Shown here piece after piece: positions 16,991 through 52,943 of a stretch of DNA of 64,000 bases. The DNA comes from an uncultured Chlorobiaceae bacterium (GTDB lineage: Bacteria; Bacteroidota; Ignavibacteria; UBA10030; SZUA-254), in assembly GCA_964410105.1 (NCBI GenBank), contig CAYPFY010000005.1, positions 35,427 to 99,426 on the forward strand, in the 5' to 3' direction. How positions within the stretch are numbered: position 1 is the stretch's first letter; each line of letters starts with the position of its first letter. The notes beneath the pieces were generated by a model. It did no database searches, had not been told where the DNA came from, and saw only the letters and a program-made list of their open reading frames with translations. Position numbers and translations under genes: made by a program.

Positions 16991-17001
16991 GAAGCTGATC
17001 G

Positions 17002-17087
17002 CCGTTAGGGGTGTCCCGCCGGCAAACGCGGGACTGAGAATAATACCCTAGGAACCTGATCTGGATGATGCCAGCGTAGGGAAACGG
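17002..17087 (+). ncRNA. TPP riboswitch (THI element)
   Basis: P1 ccgtt/aacgg, GGGGTGTCCC...GGGACTGAGA, ACCC, CCTGATCTGGATGATGCCAGCGTAGGGAA; upstream of thiamine-related genes. Confidence 0.95.
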
Positions 17088-17095
17088 AATCCTGG

Positions 17096-17144
17096 AATGC
17101 CGTTTTTCTGATCCTCCCGATCAGAAAAGCGGCATTTGTTTTTT
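17096..17144 (+). terminator. Intrinsic terminator: riboswitch expression platform
   Basis: 18-bp stem aatgccgtttttctgatc / gatcagaaaagcggcatt (one G-U), 5-nt loop, then tgtttttt. Confidence 0.88.
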
Positions 17145-17155
17145 GGAGAGACATC

Positions 17156-19465
17156 ATGAAGAATCTCATCCTGTTACTCGTTGGGACTGTCACAATTCTG
17201 CACGCGCAGGACGCCTCCGGGCAGGACACTGCAATTTACTACTTCCCCCCCGTCACCGTCAGTCCGACGGCGGCGTTTGAGAGACAGACCCCTGTCACAT
17301 TCTCGAATTTGACCAGGGAGCAGATACAGGATCGCTACTCCATTCAGGATGTCCCGGTTTTGCTCTCTGAATTGCCGTCGATCACCTATTATTCGGAGAA
17401 TGGAAACGGCATCGGATACAGTCACCTGAACCTGCGGGGATTCGAGCAGCGCCGGCTCTCGATAATGGTCAACGGGGTTCCACAGAACGACCCGGAGGAT
17501 CATGACGTCTACTGGATCGATTTCCCCGATCTCATGGCGGGGGCGGAAAACATCCAGGTGCAGCGCGGGGCCGGGAGCGAATTCTACGGACCTCCTGCGA
17601 TAGGCGGTTCGATCAATATCATCACGAATCCGTTCAGTCAGAGGCCGGGGGTGCGCCTGGAGAGCTCCTTTGGTTTCCAGGAATTCGGGGATAGCAGCGA
17701 ATCGGTCATGCTCGGGACCCGGAAATTCCAGGCATCCGTCAATTCCGGGCTGATTGACCGCCGGTATCTGATATATGGAAAGCTCGGAAAAATCGTGAGC
17801 AACGGGTACAGAATAAACTCCTGGGCCGAGCTCAATTCCTACTTCCTCGGCGCCGTGCGGATTGATGAAAACATGACCACCCGCATCAATTTCTATGGGG
17901 GCCCCATTCAAGATGCCTTGGCCTACGTAGGGATCCCCAAGTCGTACAACGAGGACAAGCGGCTGCGGAGGATCAACTATAGCGACTGGGCATATGACAG
18001 CACGGGGATGAATCTTTCGTACAGCGTCCTGCAGAAGCCGCAGGCCACGGAGGAATTCTCGCAGCCTCACTACGAGCTTATTCATGACTGGAGAATATCG
18101 AGAGAAGTCGCGCTCCACAACACCCTTTTCTATCTGCAGGGAGACGGGTACTTTCTTTACGACGGCGACTGGATCCCGTATCCCGATGCGAACGGAAACC
18201 CGACCCCCTCCATACTCTGGTTTCGCAACAATGTGGGGTACGACTCCACCTTCGGCGTATCGACATTTCCTGCGTTCATCATCAGGGGCTTCGTCGGCAA
18301 CAAGCAATGGGGGTGGCTGCCGCACCTGGAGATAAACCATGGCACCGGGAATCTCATCCTCGGGGGCGAAGTCAGGATACACCGTTCCCTTCATTACGGT
18401 AAAATCGAGTATGCCTCGCAATACCCTTCCGCCTCCTTTGACCCCGACTTCAGGATCTACGAATACAACGGCGAGAAGGACATTTTTTCGCTCTATGGTC
18501 ATGAGCTGTACCGCGCAGACGAAAAGACAAACGTCATGGCGGAGATCCAGCTTGCCTGGAACCGTTACGGAATTCAAAACGAGAAATTTCTGGGGAACAA
18601 CTTTTCCTACCCCTATTTCTTCGTCAATCCCCGCATCGGGCTGAACGAGAATTTTTCCGACAACCTCAATGCTTACGCATCGGCAGCCTACACATCGAGG
18701 GAACCGACGCTCAGGAACCTCTATGCTGCGGAGGACACCTATTTTGGGGCAGCGCCGCAATTCAGGGGAGACACCACAGGCGGGGTCGTCCGCTATGACT
18801 TCACCCAGCCGCTGGCTCAGCCTGAGCATCTTCTTGACATCGAAGTGGGGGGGTCACTCAAGACTGTCAGGGCACAGCTTTCAGCAAGTTTCTTCTGGAT
18901 GGAATTCACCGATGAGCTCGTCAAGAGCGGGCAGGTGGACATCTTCGGCCAGCCTGTAACAGGCAATGCCGAGCGAACACGCCATCTTGGGGTCGAGATT
19001 GAGGGTTCGGCTGGGCTCTCGGATGCCATCACGATTGGGGGAAACGCGGCGATCTCGAGCAATCGTCTTATCCGGCACACCGAATACGTTCCTTCCACCG
19101 ATGCGACGGGGGCAGCGGTGTACGCGCCGGTTTCGCTCGACGGAAACCCGATCGCGGGCTTTCCCGACTTTCTCGGGAACCTGCGGCTCTCGTACCGGGG
19201 AGGAAGCATTGCGTCCTCGCTCACGGTCAAGTATGTGGGGAGTTTTTACACCGACAATTTCAAGAACGAGGCGAATAAGAACGACGACTATATCGTTGTC
19301 AACGGCGAAATCCTGTTGGATCTCCTAGGATTCAACTCGGAGTTCACCCTTCGGGGCGAGGTGCGGAATATATTTAACAGGCTGTACTTTGCTGGCGGGG
19401 AAGGGGAAAAATTTTTCCCGGCGGCCGAGCGGAATTATCTCTTCGGGATCGTGGCGAGATTCTGA
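17156..19465 (+). CDS. TonB-dependent receptor, probable thiamine uptake
   Basis: Signal peptide (LHA|Q), plug motifs LRGF..R...NGVP.ND and IQVQRG...GG.INI, C-terminal NIFNRLY...F; under TPP riboswitch control. Confidence 0.88.
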   Translation: MKNLILLLVGTVTILHAQDASGQDTAIYYFPPVTVSPTAAFERQTPVTFSNLTREQIQDRYSIQDVPVLLSELPSITYYSENGNGIGYSHLNLRGFEQRRLSIMVNGVPQNDPEDHDVYWIDFPDLMAGAENIQVQRGAGSEFYGPPAIGGSINIITNPFSQRPGVRLESSFGFQEFGDSSESVMLGTRKFQASVNSGLIDRRYLIYGKLGKIVSNGYRINSWAELNSYFLGAVRIDENMTTRINFYGGPIQDALAYVGIPKSYNEDKRLRRINYSDWAYDSTGMNLSYSVLQKPQATEEFSQPHYELIHDWRISREVALHNTLFYLQGDGYFLYDGDWIPYPDANGNPTPSILWFRNNVGYDSTFGVSTFPAFIIRGFVGNKQWGWLPHLEINHGTGNLILGGEVRIHRSLHYGKIEYASQYPSASFDPDFRIYEYNGEKDIFSLYGHELYRADEKTNVMAEIQLAWNRYGIQNEKFLGNNFSYPYFFVNPRIGLNENFSDNLNAYASAAYTSREPTLRNLYAAEDTYFGAAPQFRGDTTGGVVRYDFTQPLAQPEHLLDIEVGGSLKTVRAQLSASFFWMEFTDELVKSGQVDIFGQPVTGNAERTRHLGVEIEGSAGLSDAITIGGNAAISSNRLIRHTEYVPSTDATGAAVYAPVSLDGNPIAGFPDFLGNLRLSYRGGSIASSLTVKYVGSFYTDNFKNEANKNDDYIVVNGEILLDLLGFNSEFTLRGEVRNIFNRLYFAGGEGEKFFPAAERNYLFGIVARF

Positions 19466-20083
19466 ATGCGGGCCCTCATCATCGCCAACGGCTCTATTCC
19501 CGCCGCGGATCTAACCCGTAGGACAGCTGCGCGGTCGGGGCTGATCGTCTGCGCGGACGGCGGGGCAAACCATGCACGTGAATTGGAGATTGTTCCCCAC
19601 GTCATAATCGGTGATTTCGACTCCGTCGTGCCTTCGACACTGCAATACTTCAGCGGGGCAAGACAGCTCCGCATCGCAGATCAGGATAGCACAGACCTTG
19701 AGAAGGCCATCAAATTCTGCATCGAGCAAAAAGCATCGCAGATTGATGTGATCGGTGCCTCGGGAGACCGCGTGGACCATGTCACCGGCGCACTCGGATG
19801 TTTCAAGAAATTTCCGAAAGCTCACCTTGAGCTGATCGACAGCGTGGGGACGCTGAGCCGCATCGATGGTCTTGTCACATTCGAAGCTGCAGCGGGTGAG
19901 AAAATTTCGCTTATACCTCTTGAGCGCTGCACGGGGATTACGACGGAAAACCTGCTCTATCCTTTACAGGATGCCATGCTCGAGTTGGGAGTGCGGGAGG
20001 GTATCAGCAACCAGGCGGTAGGGCGCCCGGTGACAATCTCGGTCGTGACCGGAACACTGCTCCTTTACCGGTTTCACCGATGA
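19466..20083 (+). CDS. thiN: Thiamine pyrophosphokinase
   Basis: LIIANG, CADGGAN, IGDFDS, DQDSTDLEKA, GDRVDH, GISN motifs. Confidence 0.93.
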   Translation: MRALIIANGSIPAADLTRRTAARSGLIVCADGGANHARELEIVPHVIIGDFDSVVPSTLQYFSGARQLRIADQDSTDLEKAIKFCIEQKASQIDVIGASGDRVDHVTGALGCFKKFPKAHLELIDSVGTLSRIDGLVTFEAAAGEKISLIPLERCTGITTENLLYPLQDAMLELGVREGISNQAVGRPVTISVVTGTLLLYRFHR

Positions 20084-20123
20084 AGGCTCACCCGATTGTC
20101 GCCCGACGGAGGAGTAATCCCCG

Positions 20124-21548
20124 GTGATCCATCTTGCCCCTTCCGACATCGCAGTCATCTTCCTCTACTTCGGTGCTGTGATTTTTGTTGGTTTCCGGGC
20201 GGCCCGGAAGTCACGAGGCACCGAGGAGGATTTCCTTCTCGCAGGCCGATCGTTGACACTGCCGATTTTCGTCATGACCCTGGTATCCACCTGGTATGGA
20301 GGCATACTCGGAGTGGGAGAGTTTTCCTACCGGTACGGCATATCGAACTGGGTTGTGCAGGGCGTTCCATATTACATCTTTGCGGCCATTTTCGCTCTGT
20401 TCCTCGCCAAGAAGATAAGGGCAACGGGCCTCTACACGATCCCCGATAAGCTCGAGGCAGAATACGACAGGAAGACTGCGATTCTTGGATCGATCCTGAC
20501 CTTTATACTGATGACGCCCGCTCCCTACATCCTGATGCTGAGCGTGTTTCTTCAGATGCTCTTCGGATGGAGCATGGCTCTTTGCCTGTTTGTCACTGCG
20601 GTCGTGGCGGCCTCGTACCTTTATGTCGGCGGATTCCGATCTGATGTCGAGACTGACGTTCTCGAGTTTTTTCTCATGTTCGCCGGATTCGCGGTAATAC
20701 TTCCCTTCAGTTACATGAAATTCGGTGGAACAGATTTCCTCACCTCGCACCTCCCCCCCTTGCATCTCACATGGCACGGGGGCAATTCGGCGCAGTACAT
20801 CATAGTCTGGTTCTTCATTGCCCTCTGGACACTCGTCGACCCAGCGTTTCATCAGCGATGTTATGCAGCAAAGGATGGGTCTGTCGCGCAACGGGGGATT
20901 CTGATTTCCATCATATTCTGGCTCGCGTTTGATTTCTTGACCGCGACGGCCGGGCTTTACGCCCGGGCGGCGATCCCGGGCCTGAGCGAGCCGATGAGGG
21001 CCTATCCCCTGCTCGCGGAAACGGTGCTCCCCCCCCTAGCCAAGGGTCTCTTCTATGTCGGAATGCTTGCGACAATCATGTCGACACTCAACACACTAGC
21101 CTTTGTTTCGGCACAGACCCTAGGCAGGGATTTTTGGCTGCGTTTGAAGGGGATACCGCTGGGATCGGCCTCATCGGAACAATCATCTCTGCGTTCAACT
21201 CAGGCGTGTCTTGTCATTTCCTTTCTTTTGTCCATAGGCCTGGCCCTCTTGATACCGAGCGTGATCAACATGTGGTATACGATCGGCACGGTGATCATCC
21301 CGGGATTATTGATTCCATTAATGTCCAGTTATTTCGTGCGGTGGAAAATCGCGCCCGGCATGGCATTCCTTTCAATGCTATCAGGATGGTTGGTTTCGTC
21401 CGGGTGGTTAGTCGCGGGACAGGGTCAAGGGGGCGGCTATCCACTCAACGTTGAACCGATGTATCCCGGGCTGGCAGCATCGGCCTTTGTCTGGATCTGG
21501 GGACGGAGATTCTCTTCCCCAGATCAGACGCTGAATACGCAAGCCTAA
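20124..21548 (+). CDS. Sodium:solute symporter (SSS) family, probable thiamine or thiamine-precursor transporter
   Basis: FLLAGRSL, STWYGG, GGFRSDV.TD, QRCYAAK, ATIMSTL, about 13 TM helices. Confidence 0.88.
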   Translation: MIHLAPSDIAVIFLYFGAVIFVGFRAARKSRGTEEDFLLAGRSLTLPIFVMTLVSTWYGGILGVGEFSYRYGISNWVVQGVPYYIFAAIFALFLAKKIRATGLYTIPDKLEAEYDRKTAILGSILTFILMTPAPYILMLSVFLQMLFGWSMALCLFVTAVVAASYLYVGGFRSDVETDVLEFFLMFAGFAVILPFSYMKFGGTDFLTSHLPPLHLTWHGGNSAQYIIVWFFIALWTLVDPAFHQRCYAAKDGSVAQRGILISIIFWLAFDFLTATAGLYARAAIPGLSEPMRAYPLLAETVLPPLAKGLFYVGMLATIMSTLNTLAFVSAQTLGRDFWLRLKGIPLGSASSEQSSLRSTQACLVISFLLSIGLALLIPSVINMWYTIGTVIIPGLLIPLMSSYFVRWKIAPGMAFLSMLSGWLVSSGWLVAGQGQGGGYPLNVEPMYPGLAASAFVWIWGRRFSSPDQTLNTQA

Positions 21549-21788: not shown

Positions 21789-23435
21789 CTATTTCATGAG
21801 AAGCATCTTCTTCACCTGTTGAAACTTCCCGTTGTTTGCAACGATCCGATAAAAATACGTTCCGCTCGCAAGATCCGATGCGTTCACATCCACCTCATGG
21901 AGGCCCTGGGAGTAGTACTCGTTATGAACCAGGGTTCGCACTTCTCTCCCCAATAGGTCATAGATCGTTAGACTAACGGGTCCGGGTTCCCGAAGAGTGA
22001 ACCGTATCTTGGTAGCCGGATTGAAGGGATTCGGATAGTTCTGCGAGAGTTGATATTGATTCGGGTCGGATGCAGACTGTGGAGAACCCCCAACGAAGGC
22101 GGCGCGCGACGTAAAAGTACCTCCGGTATAGTACTTCACAAGGAACAGATCCTGCGGAAGCCCGCTGAGGGTATTCTGATTTGTGGAGCCGAAGAGCACC
22201 AGACTGCTGTCATTATTGCTCGACGCCATGCCGACGCAGAGATTGCCGAGGCCGCCACCTCCGGCATTGCTCGGATCGTATATGGTTTCCGATTGGAATG
22301 TGCCTGAGGAATTAAATCTGTCAAGAACATACTTCGTAGGACTGGCATTTGTCGTCCCGCTGGTATAGAAGTCCCCGGTTGTCCCATTAATCCTGATGGT
22401 AGTCCAGGTGGAGGGCGTCGTAGCATCTCCCGACCATGCGTTCACCCCTGTCGTCTTGTCGATCTTGAAAAACTGTGAGCCGTTTGCGTGATACCCAGCA
22501 GCATAAACGGCGTTGTTATCTATAGCCATTCCTCCCGACGCAAACTGGAACGATGAGCAATTATACGAGCGGTTCGCCCAGCTTTGAGTTCCCGAGGGGG
22601 TATATTTGATGGTGGCGACATCGGCGTCGCCGCACGACGCGTAGCTGGTGCCGGTTACATAGCATCCGGACGTGTCTGCGATCAGATTCAGAGGAAGGTC
22701 GGAGCCCCCATTATCGTAGGTTTTCACCCACTGCTGGGCAATATTCAGGTCATACTTCACGGTGAGATAGTTCGGATTGGAGCTCCCTGCCTTGGCGAGC
22801 ACATAGATCGCCGAATTGGGAACCAGGGCAGCGCCTACGACGATATCCGAGTCCCCGCTGTCGTAATGACTGTCTCCCTGGAAGCCGAGAACGGCGTCGT
22901 ATTTCAATATCGTGACGTCGTATTTGGTGGAAACAGTGACCCTGCTCATTCCGACAACGTAAAACACGTTTGATCCGGGTCCTGCTGGCAGGATTTTGAC
23001 TGCGTCGTCATTTCGGTTAAGGGAGTTATAGTCATACCGTTTCACGTTGGAATTGCTCATGACGGTTGTTCCCCCCGTATCGATAACAAAGGATGCTATG
23101 TCGTAATCGGTACCGGACTGGCTCTTCCCAGTAATAAACAGGTAGGAGCCCTGGACGGCGATTGATTTCGCCTGGTCGTTATTGCCATTGTCGTACGTCT
23201 GCAACCACTTCAGCACACCGTTCCGGTCGAACTTTGCAACAAGATAGTCATACTCATTCGACGTATTCTTGATCCACCCGGCGACATAAATATTGCCGTT
23301 TACATCGACCGCCGCGTCATTGATCTGGTCATCCTTTCCATAACCGTCAAGTTGCAGTTTAAATTTATATGTTGGTTGGCCGAACGCGCTCGTGAGGCCG
23401 ACGCAAAGAAGACCTATGAGAATAGAGAATTTCAT
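21789..23435 (-). CDS. Secreted beta-propeller (SBBP-like repeat) protein with T9SS-type C-terminal domain
   Basis: RBS GGAGG, ATG 23435, signal peptide (AFG|Q), repeats of the type D....AVD..GN.YV.G......D....K.D..G...W...YD, C-terminal SQNYPNPFNP...KKMLLMK. Confidence 0.85.
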   Translation of the reverse strand: MKFSILIGLLCVGLTSAFGQPTYKFKLQLDGYGKDDQINDAAVDVNGNIYVAGWIKNTSNEYDYLVAKFDRNGVLKWLQTYDNGNNDQAKSIAVQGSYLFITGKSQSGTDYDIASFVIDTGGTTVMSNSNVKRYDYNSLNRNDDAVKILPAGPGSNVFYVVGMSRVTVSTKYDVTILKYDAVLGFQGDSHYDSGDSDIVVGAALVPNSAIYVLAKAGSSNPNYLTVKYDLNIAQQWVKTYDNGGSDLPLNLIADTSGCYVTGTSYASCGDADVATIKYTPSGTQSWANRSYNCSSFQFASGGMAIDNNAVYAAGYHANGSQFFKIDKTTGVNAWSGDATTPSTWTTIRINGTTGDFYTSGTTNASPTKYVLDRFNSSGTFQSETIYDPSNAGGGGLGNLCVGMASSNNDSSLVLFGSTNQNTLSGLPQDLFLVKYYTGGTFTSRAAFVGGSPQSASDPNQYQLSQNYPNPFNPATKIRFTLREPGPVSLTIYDLLGREVRTLVHNEYYSQGLHEVDVNASDLASGTYFYRIVANNGKFQQVKKMLLMK

Positions 23436-23843: not shown

Positions 23844-23872
23844 AATGTATGCGGAACGAGGGGATGCCGCAA
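23844..23872 (-). promoter_or_regulatory. Sigma70-like promoter for the beta-propeller gene (TTGCGG-N17-TACATT)
   Basis: -35 at 23872-23867, -10 at 23849-23844; same register relative to the operator as the cassette promoter at 27070-27098. Confidence 0.7.
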
Positions 23873-23912
23873 TGGGGTATATACCTATATATGAGGGGGG
23901 TGAACACCCCAT
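23870..23912. promoter_or_regulatory. Operator copy 1: two GGGGT-N4-ACC(C/T)-type inverted repeats 23 bp apart; candidate binding site of the NarL-type regulator
   Basis: caatggggtatatacctatatatgaggggggtgaacaccccat; 36/43 identical and ungapped versus 27096-27138. Confidence 0.8.
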
Positions 23913-23937: not shown

Positions 23938-24579
23938 TTATTTCACAATTCCTTTCAGAATCGCGTATCGGGTGAGTGTAATGGCATCGTGGAGGTCCAG
24001 TTTATTCATGATCTGCTGCCGGTACTTTTCGATCGTCTTAGTACTCAGGCAGAGCGTAGAGCTGATTTGTGAATTCGTTTGACCGATGGATATACACTGA
24101 AGGATTTCGCGTTCCCTGAGCGTAAGAACCGGTTCGAGGGGTGTCGCGCCGCGGATCTGAAGAATCGCCTTCGAAACGGTGGGGCTGAAATAAGCGTTTC
24201 CTTTCTTGATCTCACGGATTGCGAAAATCAGCTCGCTGGAGGCGGTTTGCTTTACAAGATAACCTCGTACCCCTGCCTGGATCGCGTGCGTAACGCATTC
24301 CACATCATCTGACATTGAAAGAATGATCAGACCGATGGAGGGGTCGCACTCGTGGATTCTGGCCGCTGCCTGGAGCCCATTCATCTCCGGCATGGTGATA
24401 TCCATGATCACGATCGAAGGTCGAAGATCCCGGGCGAGCTCGAGAGCGTCGTTCCCCGTGGCGGCTTCTCCGACCACGGTGATATCAGGTTCTGCCGAAA
24501 GGAGCGCTTTCAGCCCCTGCCTAAAAATTGTATGGTCGTCAGCCAGCAGCACGCCGATTTTCGACATTTTTTCCCTCAC
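23938..24579 (-). CDS. NarL/FixJ (LuxR-HTH) family response regulator
   Basis: LLADDH, MDITMP (phospho-Asp), GYLVK, LTLREREIL...G.TN..I...L.LS.KT...Y; GTGA overlap with the kinase stop. Confidence 0.95.
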   Translation of the reverse strand: MREKMSKIGVLLADDHTIFRQGLKALLSAEPDITVVGEAATGNDALELARDLRPSIVIMDITMPEMNGLQAAARIHECDPSIGLIILSMSDDVECVTHAIQAGVRGYLVKQTASSELIFAIREIKKGNAYFSPTVSKAILQIRGATPLEPVLTLREREILQCISIGQTNSQISSTLCLSTKTIEKYRQQIMNKLDLHDAITLTRYAILKGIVK

Positions 24580-25820
24580 TTCCCCGGCATGGGAAGCCTC
24601 ACATGGAGTGCGGTTCCCCGGCCGGATTTTGAATTGATATCGAGACTGCCTCCCACAAGTTTCATCCGCTCCTGCATTCCGAGCAATCCGAGATGGGGCC
24701 TCGAGCCGTCAAAGTTGCGGCTGACGTTATCGGGGTCAAATCCACGGCCATTATCCCGGATGGCCAGCACGAAACACCCGTCCTCCTGGGAGCACTCCAC
24801 AGCGACACTGGTCGCTGAAGCGTGCTGAGCGATATTGGTGAGCGATTCCTGCAGAACTCGGTAGAGCGCCAGCTTCTCCGAGCGGCCGAACAGCTCTATC
24901 GAGGGGCATTCGACAAAATCAATGGCCACTTTTGTCCGATTTGAGAATTCTCTCAAATATCCCCGGACGACAGGCAGGAAACCCACCTGGTCAAGCGATT
25001 CGGGGAGAAGATCCTGAAGAACCTGCCGCACCCTCCCCATGACCTCGCGGGTCAGGTCCTGAGCATCCTGTAGCCGGTCGTGGGCGTCTTTCGTTGCAAT
25101 TCCCGGATCCTTTTTCAAGACCTCCAGGTTTATGGTGATCGCGGCCAGCGTCTGACCGATCTCGTCGTGGAGTTCGCGTCCGATCCGCAGACGATCATTT
25201 TCCTGCACCTGGATGACCTGACGGCTCAACTGAGCCAATCGGTCCTGCATCGCAACCGCCTGGTGGAGCAGCAATTCGGATTTTCGCCGAGCGGAGCGCA
25301 GGGTACGGTCATAGCTCACCCGCTCGGTGATATCCCTGGCAATGCCCCGAACGGCCCTGGTCTTGCCATTGTCGATCACGGGCGAACTCCGAAATTCGAA
25401 CACGAACAATCGTGACTTATCCCTGGAGAAAACCGGGATCACTCCCGAAACTTCCTTCATGGAGTCGGCAACAGCCTTCAGATATCTTACAAATTTTGGA
25501 CGCATTCCTGGGGAGAGAAAATCGGTGACATCCTTCCCGATAAGCGCATCCGGCGGGTATCCGAGCAATGTCGAAGCAACCCGATTCACGCTCAGGACAA
25601 CGCCCGTCGCCGAGTGGACATAGACCAGATCCGAGACATTTTCGAAAAGATCGGCGTATCTCCGCTCATTCTCCTCAAGGAGCGCAAAATGTTCCCTCTG
25701 CAGTCTGGCCTTTGTCCTCTCGTTCAGGAAAAGGAGCGCGACCATTCCGATCCCGAGGGTAAGGGCGACGATCGTTCCTACAAGGAGGATCCACCAGAAC
25801 TCAGATGTTGGACCGGACAT
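24576..25820 (-). CDS. Sensor histidine kinase: 1 TM + PAS + HisKA_3 + HATPase_c
   Basis: True start ATG 25820 (MSGPTSEFWWILLV). Single N-terminal TM, PAS (LFENVSDLVYV...RGIARDIT), RELHDEIGQ, RVLQESLTN, DNGRGF, GLLGMQER. Confidence 0.93.
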   Translation of the reverse strand: MSGPTSEFWWILLVGTIVALTLGIGMVALLFLNERTKARLQREHFALLEENERRYADLFENVSDLVYVHSATGVVLSVNRVASTLLGYPPDALIGKDVTDFLSPGMRPKFVRYLKAVADSMKEVSGVIPVFSRDKSRLFVFEFRSSPVIDNGKTRAVRGIARDITERVSYDRTLRSARRKSELLLHQAVAMQDRLAQLSRQVIQVQENDRLRIGRELHDEIGQTLAAITINLEVLKKDPGIATKDAHDRLQDAQDLTREVMGRVRQVLQDLLPESLDQVGFLPVVRGYLREFSNRTKVAIDFVECPSIELFGRSEKLALYRVLQESLTNIAQHASATSVAVECSQEDGCFVLAIRDNGRGFDPDNVSRNFDGSRPHLGLLGMQERMKLVGGSLDINSKSGRGTALHVRLPMPGK

Positions 25821-26437
25821 AGGAAAGCCAAGGCAAAACAGATATTTGTCGCGATGGTGAGGCTCCAGTGCAAAACCCAGACGCCGATTGCTTCCTGAAC
25901 ATGGAAGTTCGTCAACACATTCAGGAGCAGGAAGAGCGTCATATTTCCCGCAAAATAAACGATGACCCCCGCAACTGCCCACACCCGGAAATTCCGGCTC
26001 AGCGGCGAGGCCCCCGCGGAACGGATGGCGAACACAGCTCCGACAGCGGCGGCGATCATCACCGCGGAGGTGACAGCTTTGGTAAACTCGGCCTGGCCGG
26101 AGAGAGGTTCAAAAGTGAACTTGGAGATCAGCCAGAATCCCGAATACGCAAGAATGCTCCATCGCAACAGCTTTGCAAACGTTCGGCCCTTTTGCCACGG
26201 AGCGACCAACATACTCAGCACGGCAAATTCTATCAGATTATAGACATGGAGGACCCACAAGTTCTGCATGTGCCGGATAGCCATGAAGAACGTGACAAAT
26301 TCGGTTGTCGCGCCCAGCGAAACATACGCAAGGAGCAATCTCCGCTCCTTGTCAAGAAGCGATCTCCTGTAAAAACTGGCACCTAACGGCAGGGCGTTAG
26401 ATGCCAGATCAACATACGCAAGGAGAGGAAGATTCAC
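25778..26437 (-). CDS. Standalone polytopic (about 7 TM) membrane protein, candidate co-receptor of the kinase
   Basis: About 7 hydrophobic segments, NLWVLHVYNLIEF and W...G..VYF.GN...F motifs; 3' end overlaps the kinase start by 43 nt. Confidence 0.75.
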   Translation of the reverse strand: MNLPLLAYVDLASNALPLGASFYRRSLLDKERRLLLAYVSLGATTEFVTFFMAIRHMQNLWVLHVYNLIEFAVLSMLVAPWQKGRTFAKLLRWSILAYSGFWLISKFTFEPLSGQAEFTKAVTSAVMIAAAVGAVFAIRSAGASPLSRNFRVWAVAGVIVYFAGNMTLFLLLNVLTNFHVQEAIGVWVLHWSLTIATNICFALAFLCPVQHLSSGGSSL

Positions 26438-26455
26438 GCGTTCGGGATCGGATCG

Positions 26456-26875
26456 TTACCGTTCGAGAGCGCTTTTTCCATCACAGATTGGTGGACAAGG
26501 AAACCCGTACTCAAGTATGTTACCGCCGGTTAGATCCGCGCCGGTCGCGTCGATCCCCACAATTACCAGAGCAGATGCTCCGGTGAGTTTCCTGCCGTAA
26601 TAGGCACGAATACCGACGCATTGCGGCTGATTCAAGACTGCGAGCAGAGCGTCGCGAGAAAAAACTTCTCCCAGGACAGAACCGGTCGCCGCTGAGTTCT
26701 TGAAATTCTTCACAAGCTCAACGGCATCGCTGAGCGAAATCGCATGACTCTCGTGACCCGTGAACTGAGAGGATTGGGCCCGGAGCTCGCCCTCGGGGGA
26801 AACCTGCCATAAAGATACGATAAAGATTGCAAAAAACAGAACTCGGGCAGGCGAAAGGTCATGATTGAACGTCAT
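26456..26875 (-). CDS. Small exported protein with CVGIRAYYG and C-terminal PCPPIC motifs (function unknown)
   Basis: Strong RBS AGGAGG, signal peptide ending ELRA|Q, mature part about 106 aa with 3 Cys; first gene of the cassette. Confidence 0.8.
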   Translation of the reverse strand: MTFNHDLSPARVLFFAIFIVSLWQVSPEGELRAQSSQFTGHESHAISLSDAVELVKNFKNSAATGSVLGEVFSRDALLAVLNQPQCVGIRAYYGRKLTGASALVIVGIDATGADLTGGNILEYGFPCPPICDGKSALER

Positions 26876-27069
26876 AATTCCTCCTATAATAAAAGATTGA
26901 TAGAATCAGTTAATGTGTTTCCGGAGGGATAGAAGTCAGCCACATCATGCGCGTCCCCTGCTGATCCGATCATGGACTCACCGGGGCTTAATTGGTGAAG
27001 GAAAGGTCGACGTGAAACGGAGATGATTCCCCTGGGACTCCTTTCAGAGAGGTTGGGGTCGTCTGTAAC

Positions 27070-27098
27070 AATTTAACCGTGGAAACCCGATCCATCAA
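27070..27098 (-). promoter_or_regulatory. Sigma70-like promoter of the signalling cassette (TTGATG-N17-TAAATT)
   Basis: -35 at 27098-27093, -10 at 27075-27070. Confidence 0.7.
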
Positions 27099-27160
27099 TG
27101 GGGTATACACCTATTTTCGGGGGGGGTGATTACCCCATGGGGAGGGGGGTCATCACCCCC
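27096..27160. promoter_or_regulatory. Operator copy 2: three GGGGT-N4-ACC(CC) inverted repeats starting at 27100, 27123 and 27146
   Basis: ggggt-atac-accta, ggggt-gatt-acccc, ggggt-catc-acccc with exact 23-bp periodicity. Confidence 0.8.
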
Positions 27161-51146: not shown

Positions 51147-52943
51147 TCAGTCCTCCATCGCGAGGACCGCGAGGAAGGCCTCCTGTGGAATCTCCACCCT
51201 TCCCACCTGTTTCATACGCCTTTTTCCTTCTTTTTGCTTCTCCAGAAGCTTGCGCTTGCGGGAAATGTCGCCTCCGTAGCATTTCGCCAAAACGTTTTTG
51301 CGCATCGCCGAAATGGAATCACGCGCGATCACCTTGCTCCCGATGGCGGCCTGGATGACGACCTCGAACATCTGGCGGGGGATTAGTTTGCGCAGTTTCG
51401 CGCACAGTTTTTTCCCCCATTCATAGGCTTTATCGCTGTGAACGATTGTGGAAAGCGCATCGACCGGCTCGGAGTTCAGCAGAATATCCAGCTTCACGAG
51501 GTCGGACGTGCGGTATTCGAGAAAATCATAATCGAGCGACGCGTACCCCCGCGACATCGACTTAAGCTTGTCGTAGAAATCGAAAATAATCTCGGAGAGC
51601 GGAAGCTCATAGCGAAGATCCGCGCGGGTCGGATCGATGTAGGTCGTATTCTTATAGACCCCCCGGCGATCGGTGCAGAGCTTCATGATGCTCCCTATAT
51701 ACTCCGCGGGCGTAATGATCTGGGCGGTGATGAAGGGCTCCTCGATGTGGTCGATCTCCCCGGCGGGGGGCATCAGTGCCGGGTTGTCGACGAGGGATAT
51801 TCCCCGATCCGTCCGCATCACGCGATATTCGACGTTGGGGACGGTGGTTATCAGCTCCTGCTTGTACTCGCGCTCAAGACGTTCCTGGACGATCTCCATA
51901 TGAAGGAGGCCGAGAAACCCAGCGCGGAACCCGAAGCCGAGGGCAATCGAGGATTCCGGCTCGAAAATCAGAGAGGCGTCGTTCATCCGGAGTTTTTCGA
52001 GAGAATCCCGCAACTCGGAGAAATTATCCGCGTTGACGGGATAGAGTCCGGCAAAAACCATCGGTTTCGCTTCCTTGTAGCCGGGGAGCGGACCGGGGGC
52101 AGGCTGTGCTGCGTTCGTCACCGTATCGCCCACCTTCGTATCGTGGACATCCTTCGCCCCGGGGATCAGGTAGCCCACATTGCCGGCGGAGAGCTCCTTC
52201 GTCCTGAGGCGCTGCATCTCAAGGATGCCGACCTCCTCGGCGTCAAACGTCCTATCGGTGGCGAAGAATTTCACCTTGTCTTTTTCCCTCAGAATCCCGT
52301 CGAAGATTCTGATATAGACGACGGAGCCCCGGTAGCCGTCGAAAATCGAGTCGAAGATAAGGGCTTTCAGGGGAGCTTCCGGGTCTCCCTGGGGGGGGCG
52401 GATCCGTTCAACGACCGCTTCGAGAATCTCGTCGACTCCCAGCTTCATTTTTGCGCTCGCCAGAATAATCTCCTCCTCTTTGCACCCGATGAGATCCATG
52501 ATCTGATGCTTGACGGAGTCGACCATTGCGCTGGGGAGATCGATTTTATTGATGACGGGAATGATCTCGAGCCCTGCGTCGATGGCGAGGTAGAGATTGC
52601 TGATCGTCTGGGCCTCGACCCCCTGGGAGGCATCGACGACGAGGATTGCCCCTTCGCAGGCGGCGAGGGAGCGGGAGACTTCGTAGGAAAAGTCGACGTG
52701 CCCGGGCGTATCAATTAGATTAAGAGTAAAACTCCGTCCATCCCGGGACTTATACTTCATCTGAATCGCGTGGAGTTTTATCGTAATCCCCCGTTCCTGC
52801 TCCAGTTCCATATCGTCGAGCACCTGATTCGTCTTCATCTCGCGTTCCGTCACGGTCCCGGTACGTTCCAGGAGGCGATCGGCGATCGTAGATTTGCCGT
52901 GGTCGATATGGGCGATGATGCAGAAGTTGCGGATATTATCCAT
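51147..52943 (-). CDS. lepA: Elongation factor 4
   Basis: [46 protein letters not shown]. Confidence 0.98.

Follow-up and report, generated by a model that had tools for sequence, protein, structure and literature searches.

A four-gene cassette in a 64,000-nt stretch of contig CAYPFY010000005.1 (GenBank assembly GCA_964410105.1, positions 35,427 to 99,426; hereafter the window), from an uncultured Chlorobiaceae bacterium, encodes a small protein with a cysteine motif, a protein of seven transmembrane helices (7TM protein), a histidine kinase with a single transmembrane (TM) helix and a NarL/FixJ-type response regulator. Here, the cassette is read as an accessory-protein-dependent two-component system with a 7TM sensor resembling G-protein-coupled receptors (GPCRs) and a CxxxC co-sensor, in which sensing is split over three proteins; a probability of about one half is assigned to this reading. 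In the proposed mechanism, the 7TM bundle would act as the specificity-determining membrane sensor and would transmit its signal sideways, within the membrane, to the only TM helix of the kinase. The small protein, presumably periplasmic in this organism, would act on the 7TM-kinase complex as a co-sensor or modulator, possibly by way of its C-x3-C thiols and a conserved histidine (with redox, a metal or another small ligand as the cue). The cytoplasmic PAS domain of the kinase may provide a second, independent input. Finally, the phosphorylated regulator would bind tandem GGT-N4/5-ACC sites that abut the TTG of a promoter of the type found in the Fibrobacteres-Chlorobi-Bacteroidetes (FCB) group, and would thereby activate its own operon together with a neighbouring gene for a beta-propeller protein secreted by the type IX secretion system (T9SS).

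The four genes were proposed in an original prediction that was made from the letters of the window alone. All four open reading frames are present where it had placed them, on the minus strand (Table 1). Of the junctions it described, the 18-nt gap between the small-protein and 7TM genes and the 43-nt overlap between the 7TM and kinase genes stand, while the 4-nt overlap between kinase and regulator holds for a regulator start at GTG 24579 and turns into an 8-nt gap for a start at ATG 24567. The latter start, which is used in the public gene call and yields 209 aa, is the more likely one; whichever of the two holds, the four genes are tightly coupled. In public gene calls, the 7TM protein is also cut to 186 aa (P0004), with loss of TM1, because its start codon is a GTG without an obvious ribosome-binding site. 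The N-terminal 33 residues that are lost in this way match homologues well in the alignment (MxLPxxAYxDxASNxLPLGAG), which argues that the GTG start and the seven helices are correct. A sigma-70-like match at 26913-26886 was discarded as a chance hit, as two such matches were found against 2.2 expected and this one overlaps the ribosome-binding site.

Gene linkage supports a functional unit. When GTDB species representatives were scanned with a profile of the small protein, 54 loci were identified, all in metagenome-assembled genomes (MAGs), which fall into Bacteroidota (Chitinophagaceae, Cyclobacteriaceae, Ohtaekwangia), Ignavibacteriota, Calditrichia and Fidelibacterota, with one labelled 'Deferribacteres'. 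Every gene context that was examined individually has the small gene first, followed by the 7TM gene, the single-pass kinase and the regulator. In a scripted survey, in which loci with at least 750 nt of downstream sequence were counted for this linkage, the 7TM gene directly follows the small gene in 55 of 55 loci, mostly with gaps of less than 30 nt, which is far beyond chance. A kinase is found at most 3 kb away in 40 of 46 loci, and the quartet can thus be regarded as the conserved unit that the original prediction had supposed. The gene after the 7TM gene nearly always opens with a short stub and one TM helix, and what follows differs: kinases of related cassettes include PAS-HisKA_3, 2xPAS-HisKA, hybrid forms with REC, PAS-GAF-PAS-HisKA_3 and minimal 1TM-HisKA_3-HATPase_c architectures. 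Of 44 loci, 25 continue with a NarL-type regulator, and in the remainder hybrid kinases, REC-only proteins or other regulators take its place. Six Bacteroidota loci have no detected kinase within 3 kb of the small gene; the three of these that were examined, L016 (5120-6647), L040 (5989-7530) and L044 (5917-7424), combine the small and 7TM genes with a 164-176-aa 1TM-PAS stub and have neither kinase nor regulator in cis. One further locus, L047, encodes a 1TM-PAS stub plus a full kinase. Since the kinase partners vary, the constant part consists of the small protein, the 7TM protein and a single-pass partner, as would be expected of an input module. Paralogous cassettes also occur within one MAG (L034/L051, L046/L048 and L036/L056).

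Neither of the first two proteins belongs to a described family. Both lack a Pfam or NCBIfam match at E≤1, save for a sub-threshold hit to DUF6108 (E 0.24). Profile searches of PDB sequences returned no match for the 7TM protein and no relative for the small protein, whose sole match is a thioredoxin chain at E 2.2. Single-sequence searches yielded two to three relatives for each protein; a profile built from four small proteins gave at least 527 matches at E≤0.01, without Pfam domain or informative name, and the 7TM profile, searched against 1.84 billion representatives, gave at least 1,906 matches at E≤1e-3 and 595 at E≤1e-10. The small protein is therefore a member of a large undescribed family, and none of 86 family members searched against Pfam contains a known domain. 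Literature searches returned analogues and nothing on either family, which agrees with the earlier statement that no characterisation was known.

The kinase consists of about 8 periplasmic residues, one TM helix, a cytoplasmic PAS domain (residues 53-168), HisKA_3 (210-275) and HATPase_c (317-412). Domain matches place it in the HisKA_3 (HPK7) class (HisKA_3 E 5.1e-14, HATPase_c E 2.1e-16), with a core that matches the UhpB model over the transmitter only (E 6.6e-37), and the regulator in the NarL/FixJ class (Response_reg E 3.7e-26, GerE E 1.2e-15). The original prediction was right about the single TM helix and the virtual absence of a periplasmic sensor and overlooked the PAS domain. It also took the adjacent polytopic protein as the probable source of the kinase input. 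Several orthologous cassettes encode minimal kinases of 261-278 aa made up of one TM helix, HisKA_3 and HATPase_c, without any sensor domain, so that input from the adjacent membrane protein is indeed the natural inference. By the definition of Mascher, intramembrane-sensing kinases receive their input through two closely spaced TM helices and have no cytoplasmic sensor domain. The window kinase, with one TM helix and a PAS domain, lies outside this definition; the kinases of L017, L057 and L061 (one TM helix, no PAS) resemble the intramembrane-sensing group in how they work and differ from it in form.

An AlphaFold2 model of the 7TM protein (115 sequences) reaches a pLDDT of 94.8 and a pTM of 0.90 and has seven helices. 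Counts of lysine and arginine, with 550 in loops 1, 3 and 5 plus the C-tail against 168 in the other segments, indicate an N-out/C-in topology with short periplasmic loops. Conserved positions are mostly polar or aromatic and lie inside the bundle (N59, E70, W102, W153, Y161, G164, W187 and N198). When the model was compared with the PDB using Foldseek, all 50 of the top 50 matches were GPCRs or GPCR-like proteins, with TMq values of 0.34-0.56, a root-mean-square deviation of 6-10 Å and a best E-value of 0.079, which is not significant; LYCHOS (probability 1.00, TMq 0.54) and adenosine receptors (TMq ~0.5) are the best neighbours. Because of these E-values, the predicted fold is termed receptor-like, a GPCR-like helical bundle that is placed in no GPCR family. 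The best 150 of the 1,906 relatives are all stand-alone proteins of about 200-230 aa, by which a frameshifted or split kinase, with the 7TM protein as its detached N-terminus, is ruled out.

When 27 complete and non-redundant cassettes were compared in pairs, the mature small domain averaged 46% identity, the regulator 39% and the 7TM protein 25%. Additionally, eight loci carry two to four tandem 7TM paralogues after a single small-protein gene (L059, 6331-9015; also L014, L025, L027, L028, L052, L058 and L062), which suggests that the receptor-like component has diversified. As the fastest-evolving and sometimes tandem-duplicated component, the 7TM protein most likely sets what is sensed. Its N-terminus and loops 2 and 6 are better conserved where the small protein of the cassette bears a signal peptide (0.50-0.53) than where it is signal-less (0.19-0.34), with equal conservation of the TM helices; uncorrected for phylogeny, this comparison is suggestive only, a weak hint of a periplasmic contact with the small protein.

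The small protein comprises a signal peptide and an alpha/beta domain of roughly 100 aa that carries FTGxExH close to the mature N-terminus and PCPPxC close to the C-terminus; the mature part contains three cysteines. By inspection, its hydrophobic N-region has the elements of a Sec signal peptide, with R11, then VLFFAIFIVSLW, then ...LRA/QSSQFTG. The structural model (pLDDT 83) shows a signal-peptide helix and a compact domain of two helices, a beta-hairpin and short strands. Eleven residues are invariant across 86 single-domain members (H44, Q83, G88, R90, Y92, D114 and P126-C127-P128-P129-x-C131). A hydrophobic N-region is present in 81 of these 86 homologues, in which FTGxExH sits one to five residues past an AxA-like signal-peptidase site, and in 0 of the 34 tandem-duplicated forms (~250 aa) among the matches listed. 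Twelve single-domain loci are also signal-less, nine beginning at MAFTG and L060-L062 having other short N-termini. In the tandem forms (L006 6001-6735; L065 6001-6768; L066 6001-6774; P0007-P0025) the first domain often lacks CPPxC and the cassette is the same. The variants P0112 and P0102 carry lipoboxes (FFVGC and FLGC) and hence represent lipoprotein forms; the JGI name 'NlpE' on P0112 has no Pfam support and was probably prompted by its lipobox. Signal-less small proteins occupy the same cassette, beside 7TM proteins whose N-out/C-in topology is unchanged, and retain C-x3-C, which is therefore unlikely to be a structural periplasmic disulfide only. The window protein has a Sec-type signal only and lacks a T9SS C-terminal domain such as the adjoining beta-propeller gene encodes, so that periplasmic retention would be expected in this diderm.

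The conserved cysteines and histidine also allow for the small protein to be an output of the system, for instance a thiol-redox or metal-handling protein that is co-transcribed with a 7TM-assisted two-component system and answers the same stress. The C-x3-C with a proline after the first cysteine, together with the conserved histidine, recalls the CxxxC+His copper site of Sco/SenC, and the motif is kept in exported and non-exported forms, as would fit a chemistry workable in either compartment. The likeness to the Sco/SenC copper and thiol-redox proteins is one of motif only, without relationship in sequence or fold, and no homology to any known redox or metal protein was found. Moreover, the core of small protein, 7TM protein and 1TM-PAS partner is retained even where neither kinase nor regulator is encoded in cis, and with widely differing output domains, and the small protein hence fits better as an input part; an output role is considered quite unlikely. 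Alternatively, the small protein could be a feedback inhibitor or connector, acting as CpxP does on CpxA, MgrB on PhoQ and LiaF on LiaS, with the 7TM protein or the PAS domain as sole sensor. Its first and probably most expressed position in the operon, behind the system's own operator, its strict co-occurrence with the kinase module, which is typical of dedicated inhibitors, and a high conservation befitting a protein-protein interface would all agree with such a role. However, a ligand or redox site would account better than a plain interface for the invariant His, Asp, Arg, Tyr and C-x3-C, and periplasmic and cytoplasmic versions are hard to fit to one inhibitory contact; this alternative is judged unlikely.

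The original prediction had put forward a candidate protein-signal system resembling quorum sensing. In such a system, the exported small protein, or a peptide cleaved from it, would diffuse as the signal, the 7TM protein would receive or process it, and positive autoregulation would close the loop. The frequent signal peptides with FTGxExH right at the predicted mature N-terminus, the first position of the small gene in an apparently autoregulated operon, the several paralogous cassettes per MAG and the genes for an ABC exporter, HlyD and radical-SAM proteins that neighbour the cassette in L004/L005 and L001 are all in line with it. The layout is also similar to that of agr and ComQXPA, four-gene operons for an exported small product, a polytopic protein, a kinase and a regulator with apparent autoregulation, and ComP and ComA are of HisKA_3 and NarL types, as in the cassette. 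Nevertheless, the components match neither system. In agr, AgrB is a peptidase unrelated to the 7TM protein, AgrD is short, the HPK10 kinase is polytopic and the regulator is of the LytTR type, whereas the cassette has GerE and a single-pass HisKA_3 kinase; ComQXPA relies on the polyprenyl transferase ComQ, hypervariable ComX and polytopic ComP, and the cassette contains no polyprenyl-synthase domain. In contrast to the agr and ComX peptides, the small protein is a conserved, folded domain without hypervariability, and the conserved core includes no AgrB-, ComQ- or C39-peptidase-like gene.

The conservation pattern points in the same direction. In pherotype-style signalling, as in agr and ComQXPA, the signal is variable, the reverse of the cassette, in which the small protein is the most conserved, slowest-evolving component. 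No special co-evolution of small and 7TM proteins, as pherotypes would entail, is seen: pairwise identities correlate with r 0.91 for small-7TM, 0.88 for small-regulator and 0.89 for 7TM-regulator, and since the first value is near the others, it is uninformative in this respect. A folded domain with a Sec signal only would have no visible way through the outer membrane, and both this and the signal-less orthologues speak against a protein that diffuses as a signal. Some variants are lipoproteins, and the exporter and radical-SAM genes are not regular neighbours of the cassette in other loci. A quorum-sensing function is consequently regarded as very unlikely.

Several known systems resemble the split-sensing arrangement preferred here, and with LiaFSR/VraTSR, UhpABC, HbpS-SenS-SenR and QseG-QseEF the cassette shares only the HisKA_3 plus NarL core. 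In LiaFSR/VraTSR of Firmicutes, an accessory membrane protein controls the kinase (PMC3543457, PMC10269926). These systems likewise combine a HisKA_3 kinase whose extracytoplasmic part is minimal, a regulator of the NarL type and a dedicated accessory membrane protein in an autoregulated operon that controls an adjacent target gene. By Pfam and NCBIfam, however, LiaF and VraT are unrelated to the 7TM protein, which sets the cassette outside the LiaFSR type; LiaS has two TM helices and HAMP instead of one TM helix and PAS, a counterpart of the small CxxxC protein is lacking, and the host of the cassette is diderm. In UhpABC of Escherichia coli, polytopic UhpC senses and controls the HisKA_3 kinase UhpB and the NarL-type UhpA. 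A polytopic membrane protein thus governs a kinase and a regulator of the same types, but UhpC is a 12-TM homologue of the major facilitator superfamily, UhpB is polytopic and no small third protein is involved, whereas the cassette pairs a 7TM receptor-like bundle with a single-pass kinase.

Small accessory proteins that tune a kinase have been described as well. SenC, encoded with PrrBA (as PrrC), uses CxxxC and His for redox or metal chemistry. HbpS of the HbpS-SenS-SenR system in Streptomyces tunes its kinase by redox/metal chemistry (PMC4991794), and QseG tunes the kinase of QseE/F (PMC6075780, PMC12691602). All three are small exported, lipoprotein or membrane-anchored proteins encoded beside the kinase they tune; they differ from the cassette protein in having no sequence or fold kinship with it and no separate 7TM partner, and they are always extracytoplasmic, whereas the cassette family has signal-less members. 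For the receptor, there is a parallel in 7TMR-DISM, reportedly described by Anantharaman and Aravind in 2003 as bacterial 7TM receptor modules. It is also a seven-helix receptor-like module coupled to histidine-kinase signalling, but it is fused to its output domain and has large extracellular domains, whereas the cassette protein is a bare bundle of about 210 aa acting in trans; with neither a Pfam match nor fusions among its best 150 relatives, the 7TM protein falls outside this class. Searches of the literature turned up no described counterpart of a GPCR-like 7TM partner that stands alone and is paired with a small CxxxC protein.

Upstream of the operon, the claim of an operator-bearing promoter proved sound. 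A 50-nt direct repeat with 80% identity occurs at 27089-27138, upstream of the operon, and at 23863-23912, and the exact sequence GGGGT-N4-ACCCC has three occurrences in 64 kb, all at these two places. The composite operator/promoter motif is found only twice in the window, where 0.10 occurrences would be expected. In L001 and L005, the closest relatives, the element is likewise present at both corresponding positions, and the six sites of the three genomes align without gaps, with 22 of 86 columns invariant (GGT-N4-ACC, AT-N-GG-N5-ACC, TTG, a 20-nt spacer and TAnnnT); in 20,000 draws of control windows from the same intergenic regions, the mean was 0.11 invariant columns and the maximum 4. 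The Bacteroidetes-type promoter has the layout TTG-N19-21-TAnnTTTG, and tandem sites placed directly against the upstream element are typical of an activator. From the positions, transcription would start near 27062 and yield a leader of about 186 nt, and the tandem sites are a probable binding site of the NarL-type regulator. Of the positive autoregulation that had been predicted, the conserved operator abutting the promoter is consistent with the autoregulation; that the effect is positive we infer. The beta-propeller gene would likewise be controlled by the cassette, on the basis of the shared operator/promoter. In L001 and L005, a copy of the element precedes a gene for a conserved 315-aa exported protein of unknown function.

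The two repeats could instead be relics of a mobile element (att sites or target-site duplications) left by insertion of the cassette, as they are direct, 80% identical and bracket the 3.2-kb cassette almost exactly. However, L001 and L005 are distinct organisms with distinct GC contents and have the element at both positions as well, conservation is centred on the GGT/ACC half-sites and the TTG and TAnnnT boxes, and no integrase or transposase adjoins the cassette in the window. This origin is thus highly improbable. GGGGT-N4-ACCCC was rejected as a general operator of the family, being absent upstream of other loci, and the relaxed tandem motif GGT-N4/5-ACC is common only to the closest relatives L001 and L004/L005. 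Rfam detects no element in the leader of either the operon or the beta-propeller gene.

Table 1. Positions of the cassette genes and of the associated regulatory features in the window.
Feature	Position	Strand	Remarks
Small-protein gene	26456-26875	-	139 aa; ATG; strong AGGAGG 5 nt upstream
7TM gene	25778-26437	-	219 aa; GTG start; undescribed stand-alone family
Histidine kinase gene	24576-25820	-	414 aa; ATG at 25820
NarL/FixJ-type response regulator gene	23938-24579	-	REC and GerE helix-turn-helix domains; 213 aa from GTG 24579
Operator-like tandem sites, GGT-N4-ACC ... GG-N5-ACC	27096-27134	-	end in TTG of promoter upstream element
Downstream promoter element TAAATT (TAnnnT)	27070-27075	-	20 nt past TTG; invariant T79, A80, T84
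Extra palindrome GGGGTCATCACCCC	27146-27159		upstream of tandem operator; 16-nt inverted repeat with 27121-27136, 94% complementary
Second tandem-operator copy	23870-23908	-	30 nt past regulator stop codon, upstream of next gene
Downstream promoter element TACATT, second copy	23844-23849	-	same alignment columns as first copy
Beta-propeller (SBBP repeat) protein gene	21789-23435	-	signal peptide and T9SS C-terminal sorting domain; probable regulon target

Several points weigh against a three-protein sensor. The contacts among the small protein, the 7TM protein and the kinase are ones that we infer, and the PAS domain could by itself be the real sensor of the window kinase. The Foldseek E-values of the 7TM protein fall short of significance, and the small-protein domain has no structural neighbour in the PDB by the same method (best E 0.47). 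The occurrence of signal-less small proteins beside topologically unchanged 7TM proteins means that no single periplasmic interface can serve the whole family, a universal Cys2His site is weakened by the substitution of H44 in a clade of Cyclobacteriaceae, and the output is not always of the NarL type. In a bolder version, the cassette would be a new input module of the FCB superphylum, in which a stand-alone GPCR-like 7TM protein works in trans with a single-pass kinase and needs a small CxxxC protein whose FTGxExH engages the receptor from the periplasm or the cytoplasm, depending on lineage. This version is put forward tentatively and is considered unlikely; if true, it would represent a protein-assisted 7TM-to-kinase coupling without described precedent.

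Other features of the cassette surroundings and of the window can be mentioned. In the closest relatives (L005 1-5418 and 9148-12435; L001 3690-6251), the genes flanking the cassette encode radical-SAM proteins, an ABC exporter and its HlyD-like partner, a sigma-54 activator and a patatin. LepA (51147-52943, minus strand), the regulator and the kinase are each the sole member of their 90%-identity cluster, and the source organism belongs to a poorly sampled lineage. Its GC content is 56%, against AT-rich Ignavibacteriales among the closest cassette relatives. Elsewhere in the window, a thiamine pyrophosphate (TPP) riboswitch (72 bits, 16997-17099, plus strand) lies ahead of genes at 17156-21548 for a TonB-receptor-like protein, thiamin pyrophosphokinase and a sodium:solute symporter, which probably form a thiamine uptake/salvage operon.

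Of the steps in two-component signalling, signal input is the least understood, and FCB bacteria (Bacteroidota, Ignavibacteriota and relatives) have been poorly studied in this regard. Here, two unannotated families, of at least 527 small-protein and at least 1,906 7TM clusters, are tied to kinases by strict gene linkage, which gives them a testable function. The proposed system would explain how signals are received by kinases that consist of just one TM helix and a catalytic core, and it also offers a reporter, in the form of the conserved operator/promoter, and a candidate target gene. If the 7TM protein does act as a receptor bundle coupled in trans, this would represent a new bacterial wiring of 7TM receptors.

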